From: a virus
IMG/VR virus record: IMGVR_UViG_3300047491_001507
DNA: 64,000 bases
Reading direction: 5' to 3' (one strand)
Shown: piece by piece, positions 51,279-53,494 of the stretch
Layout: the number at the start of each line of letters is the position of its first letter
Numbering within the stretch: position 1 is the stretch's first letter
Position numbers and translations under genes: made by a program
Notes under the pieces: generated by a model
What the model saw: the letters and a program-made list of their open reading frames with translations, nothing else
What the model was told of the DNA's origin: nothing
Databases searched by the model: none

Positions 51279-52214
51279 ATGAGCAAATATACTTGTAAAT
51301 TATTTCCATTTGAAAAAAAAGAATGTATTTCAATTCAAGACGTAAAGCAAAATGCAGGCTGGAATATTACTGCATTTGATCTTCCAACAACTTGGCAGCA
51401 TACTCAAGGAGAGGGTGTGGTAATCGCCGTAATCGACACTGGTGTTGACATCACCCATACTGATCTTGTGGATAATTTATTGCCTGGAATTAATTTACTT
51501 GACTCTAAAAAACCTCCCATAGATGGTAATGCTCATGGATCACATGTTTCAGGAATATTAGTAGCATCCAATAATGATTTTGGAGTTGTAGGTGTTTGTC
51601 CTAAGGCTAAAGTATTACCAATCAAAGCTTTAAGTGATAAAGGCATTGGTAATATGTTAGATGTTGCTAAGGGTATTCGTTGGGCTGTAGAACAAAAAGC
51701 AGATATAATTTGTATGTCTCTTGGCACACCCAATAAATTACAAGAGGTAAGAAAGGCGATTCAGTTTGCTTATGAAAGGAATATTCCTGTATTTGTGGCT
51801 GCTGGTAATCAAGGCGAAACTAAGGAGATATTTTATCCAGCCAATTATCCAGAGACAATTGCTATTGGGGCAATTGACGAGAATTTTCATCGGGCAAGTT
51901 TTTCCAATACTGGAGAAAATCTCGATTTTATGGCTCCAGGCGTTAACATTATTAGCACTTTCCCTAATAATTGGTATGGCACATTATCAGGGACATCTAG
52001 TGCGGCACCATTTGCTGCTGGAGTGGCCGCATTATTATTATCATATATCAGAAATAAAAAGCCAGATAATTTGAAGATTAATTGTGTAGATGATTATCGT
52101 GAAATTTTAAGACATTACACAATGCCAATTCCAGATACCTCAAATGAAAATAGGGCATTTTACGAAGGTCTTGGGATTATTGATCCAAGAAAATTACATG
52201 AAGCATTAAATTGA
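51279..52214 (+). CDS. subtilisin-like serine protease (peptidase S8)
   Basis: Catalytic triad contexts VIAVIDTGVD (Asp), NAHGSHVSGIL (His), GTSSAAPFAAG (Ser). Confidence 0.85.
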   Translation: MSKYTCKLFPFEKKECISIQDVKQNAGWNITAFDLPTTWQHTQGEGVVIAVIDTGVDITHTDLVDNLLPGINLLDSKKPPIDGNAHGSHVSGILVASNNDFGVVGVCPKAKVLPIKALSDKGIGNMLDVAKGIRWAVEQKADIICMSLGTPNKLQEVRKAIQFAYERNIPVFVAAGNQGETKEIFYPANYPETIAIGAIDENFHRASFSNTGENLDFMAPGVNIISTFPNNWYGTLSGTSSAAPFAAGVAALLLSYIRNKKPDNLKINCVDDYREILRHYTMPIPDTSNENRAFYEGLGIIDPRKLHEALN

Positions 52215-52688
52215 TCCTAAAATATTTTTCCATAATTCAATGGTTTTTTCTAATTCTTTTTTCAATTCTGATGCTACTTCGTATTGTTCTAGCTCAATTG
52301 CTTGATTTAATTTGATTTTCAAATCATTAATTTCCTTCATGGCATTTTGTTTTTTGGGTTTCTTTCCTATATGTTCTGAGGCTTTGTGATAAGGTTCTAC
52401 GAATTTTTTAACATAAAACTGAAAGACATCATAACATTTAGGACAACCAAAACGACCTGTTTTCTCAAAATCGGCTGCTGTAAAACCGCAAATACATGTA
52501 ATTTCTCTTAAAACAGGTTTTTTTAATAAACCGACCAATTCTTCAGTGGTTTTAATGACTTCTTTTGGATACAAATCGTCTGTACAATTCTTGCAAATAC
52601 TGTAAGAAATAACATTTTCACTAAGTTCTGTTACTTGTGCAGTGCAAAAGCAAAATTTCTTACAATAATGGCATTTTACCAATTTCAT
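52206..52688 (-). CDS. McsA-like protein (zinc fingers plus UvrB/UvrC UVR motif; protein-arginine-kinase-activator family)
   Basis: CICGFTAADFEKTGRFGCPKCYDVF...HIGKKPKK matches McsA (CPKCGMTFQQFRKIGRFGCSECYKTF...HAGKIPKR) and is followed by a UVR-like helix LKIKLNQAIELEQYEVASELKKEL; an N-terminal CxxC...CxxC pair is also present. Confidence 0.5.
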   Translation of the reverse strand: MKLVKCHYCKKFCFCTAQVTELSENVISYSICKNCTDDLYPKEVIKTTEELVGLLKKPVLREITCICGFTAADFEKTGRFGCPKCYDVFQFYVKKFVEPYHKASEHIGKKPKKQNAMKEINDLKIKLNQAIELEQYEVASELKKELEKTIELWKNILGSI

Positions 52689-53494
52689 ATTATTCTTCCT
52701 TTAATTTTCAGTACAAAACCATCGTTAGATTTAGAAATTGTTCCTGCTATTGTACTTCTTTTCACCCACAAAGGAAAACCATCTTCAGGATTGAGCTTTG
52801 GAATGATTATTGGATAAGTGGAAGATGTTTCTGTAAAAGAAACATTTACAGGGGCTGTGGTAGATTCGCTGAGTAATTCTGGAATTGTATTGACTGGATA
52901 TCCTTGTTGTATTAAAGATATAGCAATGCTTGCATCTGGAAACAAGGAGTGATTTATATCTTGCAGACTAGTAAGAAGAGGATGACTTTTGATTCCATCT
53001 TCTCCTGCAAATTTCACATCCAATACAATCGAGGTGGAGTTTGTTTGGGTTACTATGACCCCATTGAGACTTGACAAGCCATTGAGAGCATTTTGAACGT
53101 TTTGCCCAAGAGAATTAATATCGTATTCACAAACGGCTTGTTCGCCACCGTACATCAATATGAAAGATCCGCTTGTCGGAATAGGAGAAATAACAATTCT
53201 TTGTATTTCATTTTGACTCAAAATTCCTACTGTAATATTAGAGCCTACATCAGGCTCCTCTGTTGTCCATAATGAAATTTCAAATGAATCTGTGCTGTCA
53301 TTCCAAATATAAATACATCTGTAATCTTCATAACCTGACTCGTTTTGATCTGTACTGACATCAGAAAAAAGATTGTTTAATAGTCCGCTGGCAATTGAAC
53401 GGTTGGAGGGATTTCCTCCCAAAGAGCTATCTGGATCGATATTAGAAGATCCTCCTGTTAGAACAAAGGAAATGGCATTTGAATAATCTGTCAT
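52685..53494 (-). CDS. hypothetical protein (269 aa, Ser/Thr/Asn-rich)
   Basis: ORF with a 4-nt overlap to the McsA-like gene, so likely co-transcribed. Confidence 0.4.
   Translation of the reverse strand: MTDYSNAISFVLTGGSSNIDPDSSLGGNPSNRSIASGLLNNLFSDVSTDQNESGYEDYRCIYIWNDSTDSFEISLWTTEEPDVGSNITVGILSQNEIQRIVISPIPTSGSFILMYGGEQAVCEYDINSLGQNVQNALNGLSSLNGVIVTQTNSTSIVLDVKFAGEDGIKSHPLLTSLQDINHSLFPDASIAISLIQQGYPVNTIPELLSESTTAPVNVSFTETSSTYPIIIPKLNPEDGFPLWVKRSTIAGTISKSNDGFVLKIKGRII

Follow-up and report, generated by a model that had tools for sequence, protein, structure and literature searches.

The window analysed here is a stretch of 64,000 nucleotides of viral DNA (IMG/VR virus record IMGVR_UViG_3300047491_001507), and its subject is a minus-strand gene for a 160-aa protein that resembles McsA, the activator of the bacterial protein-arginine kinase McsB, which marks proteins for degradation. 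Phospho-arginine tagging by McsA and McsB corresponds in bacteria to marking by ubiquitin, and what is known of it comes, to our knowledge, almost entirely from work on Bacillus and Staphylococcus. The first-pass annotation, made from the sequence letters, had called two adjacent genes for proteins of 160 and 269 aa, and both are found exactly where it had placed them:

52206 to 52688, minus strand: McsA-family gene (160 aa), an orphan, identified from its open reading frame (ORF) and from NCBIfam, PDB and HMMER matches
52685 to 53494, minus strand: orf269 (269 aa), a virion-type beta fold related to Bxb1 gp23 according to model, fold and profile searches
52685 to 52688, minus strand: 4-nt ATGA overlap between the stop codon of orf269 and the start codon of the McsA-like gene, read from the sequence

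Because the ATGA is shared and a Shine-Dalgarno-like AAGGAAG motif lies 6 nt ahead of the McsA-like ATG, translational coupling of the two genes is likely, and the 4-nt overlap thus bears out the link to the upstream ORF that had been proposed. The ORFs on the plus strand inside the interval are short (41-79 aa) and unsupported, matches to promoter and terminator consensus sequences at the locus occur at chance level only, and Rfam returned nothing for the McsA-like/orf269 interval.

Membership in the McsA family

The NCBIfam McsA model NF053706 matches residues 62-147 of the 160-aa protein (E = 2.3e-12), with an alignment that extends to model position 168 of 182, and among known structures the protein matches B. 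subtilis McsA from the McsA/McsB crystal structure (PDB 8wtb_B, E = 1.2e-8) as well as a S. aureus fragment (PDB 8gqd_E, E = 1.2e-3). A HMMER search of 1.84 billion representatives returned 3,459 relatives at E <= 1e-3. The NF053706 and 8wtb_B matches substantiate the family assignment of the first-pass annotation, which had named generic CxxC ribbons as the competing explanation: at the level of sequence, the likeness to McsA lies far beyond chance and beyond generic zinc ribbons. Judged in the same way, the protein is a McsA homolog, not an equivalog by the NCBI criterion and not a close copy. The agreement with McsA had been described as almost residue for residue, which holds for the motif positions but not overall, since identity to B. 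subtilis McsA is 31.8% over 85 positions; in addition, the motif string had the histidine spacing wrong, as H101 and H106 lie 4 residues apart, not 6.

An identical protein is on record from a 306-kb contig, and the word-indexed protein search that retrieved it gave no other match; a scan of IMG/VR with the single 160-aa protein as query gave no match, while a DNA-pattern scan of IMG/VR matched one contig. Earlier labels on the phage McsA-like gene are automatic only ("UvrB/UvrC protein" or "protein arginine kinase activator"), and a full-text search of the literature found no description of a phage McsA. Among the longer relatives no fusions of the McsA-like part with other domains were seen, only low-complexity linkers.

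Domain architecture and McsB-contact residues

All four McsA modules are present in the 160-aa phage protein, whose AlphaFold model has a predicted local distance difference test (pLDDT) score of 87.8:

52584 to 52673, minus strand: N-terminal CxxC...CxxC segment (C6xxC9 and C32xxC35), from the sequence and the AlphaFold model
52386 to 52496, minus strand: second cysteine cluster C65/C67/C82/C85 with G78-R-F-G-C-P-K-C-Y86, from the alignment to B. subtilis McsA
52344 to 52385, minus strand: L3 loop, residues 102-115, with H106-I-G108-K109-K-P111-K112, from the alignment and the model
52212 to 52343, minus strand: UVR/coiled-coil hairpin, residues 116-159, from a Pfam UVR match below the cut-off and the model

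The N-terminal segment is modelled as a beta-hairpin ribbon (strands 3-5, 12-22 and 26-32, helix 33-39; pLDDT >90) in which C6, C9, C32 and C35 align with C3, C6, C29 and C32 of B. subtilis McsA, and the same CxxC...CxxC arrangement occurs in 107 of the 150 closest relatives. The second cluster aligns with the B. subtilis stretch that holds R96, F97, G98, Y103 and H118, so placed that C65, C67, C82 and C85, with predicted zinc binding, match C81, C84, C99 and C102. Its first pair is a CxC, which is specific to the phage proteins and absent from 99 cellular copies, where a CxxC is found. In the L3 loop, residues of the phage protein correspond to H124, K127 and K130 of B. subtilis McsA, which bond to McsB (PMC11046695); the loop lies on the McsB kinase domain, and its known role is McsB binding. 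Its pLDDT is low (64), which fits a flexible loop. Not one of the 44 phage-like sequences departs from its H, G, K and P. These 44 were collected by phmmer, without selection for the motif, and are called phage-like because each resembles verified phage copies more closely than it does any of 120 cellular copies.

The C-terminal hairpin (helices 116-132 and 136-159, pLDDT 98) is the counterpart of the H4/H5 coiled-coil (CC) domain of B. subtilis McsA. A UVR-type helix had been noted here from the sequence; it does fall inside the McsA model match and is predicted by AlphaFold to fold into a helical hairpin, but the Pfam UVR match stays below threshold (E = 0.004, 17.3 bits against a cut-off of 21.5 bits). 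The hairpin raises the question whether the phage protein could bypass McsB altogether and, as an adaptor or inhibitor, bind a host ClpC-type unfoldase at its UVR-containing M-domain. The interactors of plastid ClpC1 show an enrichment of UVR-domain proteins (PMC8889267), phage SPO1 Gp53 offers a case of a phage protein that targets ClpC, and a weak UVR-to-UVR match was obtained between ClpC and the McsA-like copy of a divergent related phage locus (L003, E = 0.098). Given that the Pfam UVR match is marginal and that no sign was found of the McsA coiled coil binding ClpC, we consider such a ClpC-directed role very improbable.

The residues through which B. subtilis McsA contacts McsB are listed in PMC11046695. 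In B. subtilis numbering, C84, R96, F97, G98, Y103, H118, H124, K127 and K130 are identical in the phage protein, R131 is changed to K and H107 to Q, and K83, Q90, S100, T111 and I132 differ. Across the 44 phage-like sequences Y103, H124, G126, K127 and P129 are invariant, and the subfamily carries the signature [FY]-P-Y-H in place of [KR]-R-[IMV]-H ahead of H118.

This mixture of retained and altered positions bears on an unlikely alternative in which the phage protein would be a decoy, sequestering or mis-assembling McsB and thereby blocking phospho-arginine tagging, of phage proteins for instance, or the induction of the CtsR regulon or an equivalent stress regulon. The conserved binding determinants would allow it to dock, and K83 is lost through the CxC deletion, while Q90 is replaced by D, S100 by P and T111 by K. 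Furthermore, R115 of B. subtilis McsA, which holds CtsR when phosphorylated (bioRxiv 10.1101/2025.11.26.690658), corresponds to E98 in the window copy and to F or Y in most phage copies. However, R115 is also missing from most cellular McsA proteins, so that its loss is not diagnostic. The missing pArg115 site was rejected as a sign of retargeting on the same ground.

A C-terminal tail of the form S-x-[DEG]-Q (...TSEDQ, ...SSDQ) ends about 12 of the 150 closest relatives, all of them phage-type (P0002, P0003, P0004, P0008, P0010, P0014 and P0016 among them), and could be a C-terminal recognition tag; the window copy has no such tail.

Orphan status

The first-pass annotation had seen no mcsB in the window, and a tblastn search of the window with B. 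subtilis McsB agrees, its best match having E = 0.27. Neither the window nor 10 related phage loci (191 kb of phage DNA in total) contain mcsB, clpC, clpP, ywlE or ctsR, and in none of 12 phage loci does mcsB stand next to the McsA-like gene. Likewise, tblastn found no McsB in LR756511.1, a complete huge-phage genome that carries a relative, and a 12-sequence McsB alignment found none in the 2.9 million contigs of IMG/VR. In 50,697 phage records, the McsB probe matched only "phage" records of 2-95 kb from Listeria, Staphylococcus and the gut; these carry a host-type mcsA as well and look host-derived. The examined part of the huge-phage GenBank files holds no annotation with "guanido", "McsB" or "phosphagen".

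Cellular genomes present a different picture. A scan for G-C-x2-C-Y-x14-[HQ]-x4-H-x-G-K-x-P in one genome per GTDB species gave at least 120 cellular loci with the short-L3 motif, and among the matches listed are 37 from Verrucomicrobiota, 46 from Clostridia and allies, 12 from Bacilli, 7 from Omnitrophota, 5 from Planctomycetota and others. In the 8-kb blocks around the 120 loci listed, the same McsB probe detects mcsB beside mcsA in 111, a clpC-type gene is found in 88, and ctsR occurs in 40, all of Firmicutes. The phage protein is shorter than B. subtilis McsA (160 against 185 aa; PDB 8WTB/8WTC; PMC11046695), the spacing that corresponds to H118...H124 is one residue shorter, and its gene lies outside a ctsR-mcsA-mcsB-clpC operon with no kinase gene nearby. 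In L3 spacing and motif it is instead like the short-L3 (H-x4-H) McsA proteins of Verrucomicrobiota, Planctomycetota, Omnitrophota, Clostridia and Paenibacillus, which are its best cellular matches. These differ from it in having the CxxC and, in the 111 loci just mentioned, an mcsB immediately downstream, whereas the phage copies have the CxC and no mcsB.

Among the matches listed (L009-L128), Verrucomicrobiota, Omnitrophota and Planctomycetota commonly have mcsA-mcsB, often together with clpC, and clpC lies in the same 8-kb block at 20 of the Verrucomicrobiota loci. The phospho-arginine system therefore extends widely beyond the Gram-positive bacteria that studies have dealt with.

A conserved gene pair in huge phages

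The phage setting assumed by the first-pass annotation is supported by the replication genes of the window (36% GC), among them genes for a DnaB-like helicase, a DNA polymerase, UvsX and other helicases, and by relatives on contigs of 138-686 kb. Including the window, 12 independent phage loci were compared (the others being L001, L002, L003, L004, L005, L006, L007/L008, L129, L130, L131 and L132), and their gene context was cross-checked by tblastn. Known parent sequences measure 261 kb (L003, IMG/VR), 595 kb (L004), 138 kb (L005), 686 kb (L129) and 477 kb (L130); L004 is LR756511.1, the complete phage SR-VP_PHAGE_COMPLETE_CIR-CU-CL_42_23 (Al-Shayeb et al., 2020). At all 12 loci an orf269 homolog lies upstream of the McsA-like gene, mostly with the 4-bp overlap, which is also present in the gene calls of L005, L006, L129, L130, L131 and L132. 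In L003 and L004 a secreted-looking ORF of 174-206 aa is placed between the two. The usual gene order is Prim-Pol, COOH-NH2 ligase and a 271-aa ORF (both on the opposite strand), orf269, the McsA-like gene, a convergent S8 protease and a glycosyltransferase of families 2 and 9 (GT2/GT9), and a S8 subtilase homolog adjoins the pair in L002, L003, L005, L006, L007/L008, L129, L130 and L132. A megablast search with 15 kb of the window against the 50,697 phage records gave no match.

The phage loci range from 32 to 67% GC, which indicates that the clade spans very different hosts. Copies from different clusters score about 100-160 bits against each other, above any cellular match, and 44 of the 150 closest clusters at 50% identity are phage-like, so that the subfamily is old and diverse. 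From this cluster count and the GC range, the McsA-like gene appears to have been retained by phages for a long time.

The ORF inserted in L003 (5647..6267, minus strand) and L004 (7195..7719, plus strand) has a conserved C-terminus, YHD.N.LI.R, and these two loci hold the most divergent relatives. A second orf269 paralog in LR756511.1 (420 aa; L004, 4962..6224, plus strand) carries a large insertion.

The upstream partner orf269

No Pfam or NCBIfam family matched orf269. Its homologs (n = 50) are all about 270-300 aa long, lie on contigs of up to 691 kb and have a mean column identity of 50%; among deposited phages LR756511.1 alone has one. The model (pLDDT 91.8, predicted template modelling score 0.87) shows an all-beta sandwich into which a small alpha/beta domain is inserted. 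Foldseek retrieved minor and major tail proteins, and the fold matches also include the Bxb1 tail tube and capsid accessory domains, followed by sheath proteins. Moreover, the family profile matches three tandem repeats of the Bxb1 tail-tip cage protein gp23 (E = 6e-10; PDB 9D93), with which orf269 shares the beta-sandwich and an E-[IV]-Q-x-[IV] ... T-G-G-x-[FL]-x-L repeat domain. The two differ in size (269 against 685 aa) and in that orf269 has a single repeat inserted in its beta-sandwich; furthermore, orf269 sits among replication and modification genes and not in an obvious tail module. Model and profile together identify orf269 as a predicted virion-type protein, not a kinase. The idea of a cryptic McsB-like kinase was rejected, as NEEDH and C-P-T-N-x-G-T-G-x-R are absent from the 38-sequence alignment, the fold is all-beta and the matches are phage tail proteins. 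Nor does anything support the target adaptor that the first-pass annotation had made of orf269, which fold and profile instead link to a virion structural protein.

The constant company of orf269 is the chief argument for a somewhat unlikely alternative, namely that the McsA-like protein has been recruited to serve orf269 as an assembly factor, a chaperone or a partner associated with the virion, and makes no contact with McsB. Small proteins encoded directly downstream of tail-fibre or tail-tip genes are often assembly chaperones. The order orf269 to McsA-like gene holds at 12 of 12 phage loci, usually with translational coupling, and the pairing persists in L003 and L004 although their other neighbours differ; the virion-type fold of orf269, the lack of McsB in the phages and the phage-specific changes in the interface region would likewise suit a role within the phage. 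On the other hand, the loop whose sole known function is McsB binding does not vary within the phage subfamily, and the pattern of constraint parallels the one seen in cellular McsA linked to McsB. In L003 and L004 the unrelated secreted-looking ORF separates the pair, the wider region is syntenic in most of the clade, so that adjacency may partly reflect common descent, and orf269, as a small beta-sandwich, is unlike the trimeric fibres that usually depend on a chaperone.

A proposed orphan regulatory subunit for a host kinase

Homology, the full domain architecture, key contact residues, orphan status and clade-wide conservation are the points established for the phage McsA-like protein. The reading that we prefer, and to which we give about an even chance, is that the protein is an orphan regulatory subunit that docks on a McsB-type kinase of the host. 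By sequence comparison, the phage would then probably manipulate the protein-degradation tagging system of its host. In B. subtilis, McsA binding rearranges the catalytic site of McsB, prevents McsB self-assembly and raises activity 5-6-fold. With all four modules kept, the phage McsA-like protein would by default be expected to bind the host McsB-type kinase and to activate or re-assemble it, and altered phospho-arginine tagging, ClpC/ClpP proteolysis or stress-regulon control could follow. Phage targeting of the Clp pathway has a precedent in SPO1 Gp53, which acts on ClpC (PMC6873191). Both proteins are phage-encoded, and Gp53 interferes with host ClpC/ClpP proteolysis; however, Gp53 binds ClpC directly, whereas the phage McsA-like protein is the homolog of a kinase activator one step upstream, so that the likeness proposed is one of purpose.

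Several points weigh against docking on host McsB. The NCBIfam McsA score is 47 bits, compared with an equivalog cut-off of 210 bits. Conservation does not differ significantly between contact and non-contact positions (p = 0.15), which speaks for similar constraint and is not proof of a common interface. LR756511.1 has no confident host call, with Proteobacteria accounting for 4.0%, Parcubacteria for 2.3% and Planctomycetes for 2.2% of its genes, and McsB is not known from most Proteobacteria. Finally, the coupling of the McsA-like gene to a virion-type gene is left unexplained by a model built on McsB, and its invariable association with a tail-tip-cage-like protein suggests a role internal to the phage.

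Nor can a host of the related clade be named with confidence from the supplement to Al-Shayeb et al. (2020). Matches between phage and cellular McsA reach about 84 bits at 30-41% identity, with a slight lean to the Planctomycetota-Verrucomicrobiota-Chlamydiota group and its allies; since this lean is only slight, the McsA similarity singles out no phylum and no recent donor, and thus points to no host. The function of the phage McsA-like protein, like its host, is something that we infer.

A further reading, improbable in our view, is that orf269 and the McsA-like protein form a two-part phage device. The virion-type protein might deliver the McsA-like subunit together with the DNA, or orf269 might be a substrate receptor that presents host proteins, for instance defence proteins, to captured McsB. 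In the first form, the device would reprogram host arginine phosphorylation from the first moments of infection; in the second, it would be a viral hijack of the phospho-arginine degradation tag, akin to a proteolysis-targeting chimera (PROTAC) and at work well outside the Firmicutes, from which the pathway is known.

While the McsA family itself is known, a homolog of the regulator in a viral, orphan setting, coupled to a virion-type protein and with subfamily-specific changes, is new. If the protein does dock on host McsB, it would rank as the first described case of a virus regulating a protein-arginine kinase of its host, as no earlier report was found in the literature searched; if its partner is not McsB, the invariant H-x-G-K-x-P loop would have a second binding partner, which would also be new. 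The finding would surprise researchers working on Clp and phospho-arginine. With 160 aa the protein is a tractable handle that could reveal how huge phages remodel host proteostasis, and the finding points to unstudied mcsA-mcsB-clpC modules in Verrucomicrobiota, Planctomycetota and Omnitrophota.

Neighbouring genes and other features of the window

The pair is flanked on both sides by plus-strand genes:

51279 to 52214, plus strand: S8 subtilase (Pfam Peptidase_S8, E = 3.8e-56; PHROG 3677)
53595 to 54410, plus strand: 271-aa ORF without assigned family, divergent from orf269, also in L129 and L130
54422 to 55348, plus strand: phiEco32-type COOH-NH2 ligase (Pfam PF14395, E = 8.6e-17), also in L129 and L130

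The subtilase, rightly placed next to the McsA-like gene by the first-pass annotation, converges on it with a 9-nt 3' overlap. On the other side, the 271-aa ORF and the COOH-NH2 ligase form a pair divergent from orf269 that is kept in the 477-kb and 686-kb relatives (L130 and L129, respectively). A gene for a GT2+GT9 fusion glycosyltransferase (641 aa) and a sulfotransferase gene adjoin the subtilase (48700..51260, plus strand), and the related regions of L005, L129 and L130 add a methyltransferase, a 2-oxoglutarate (2OG)-Fe(II) oxygenase or a radical S-adenosylmethionine (SAM)/SPASM protein. Taken together, these genes resemble an island for the modification of proteins or glycans, whose targets could include virion proteins.

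Further along the window, a 377-aa protein (56121..57254, minus strand) contains about 36 copies of a 15-nt unit (56602-57147) that encode an array of GDEDM pentapeptides between conserved N- and C-termini (PGDVGFAP...). Its homolog in LR756511.1 (L004, 3374..4420) is near the orf269/McsA-like pair and so belongs to the same syntenic block. A phage-encoded tRNA-Tyr with anticodon GTA (26598..26683, plus strand), found by ARAGORN and Rfam, is the sole RNA family match in the window. A 514-aa protein (59036..60580, plus strand) has an N-terminal array of tetratricopeptide repeats (TPR), matched by several Pfam TPR models with a best E of 1.8e-33, and shows weak similarity to a phage glycosyltransferase PHROG.

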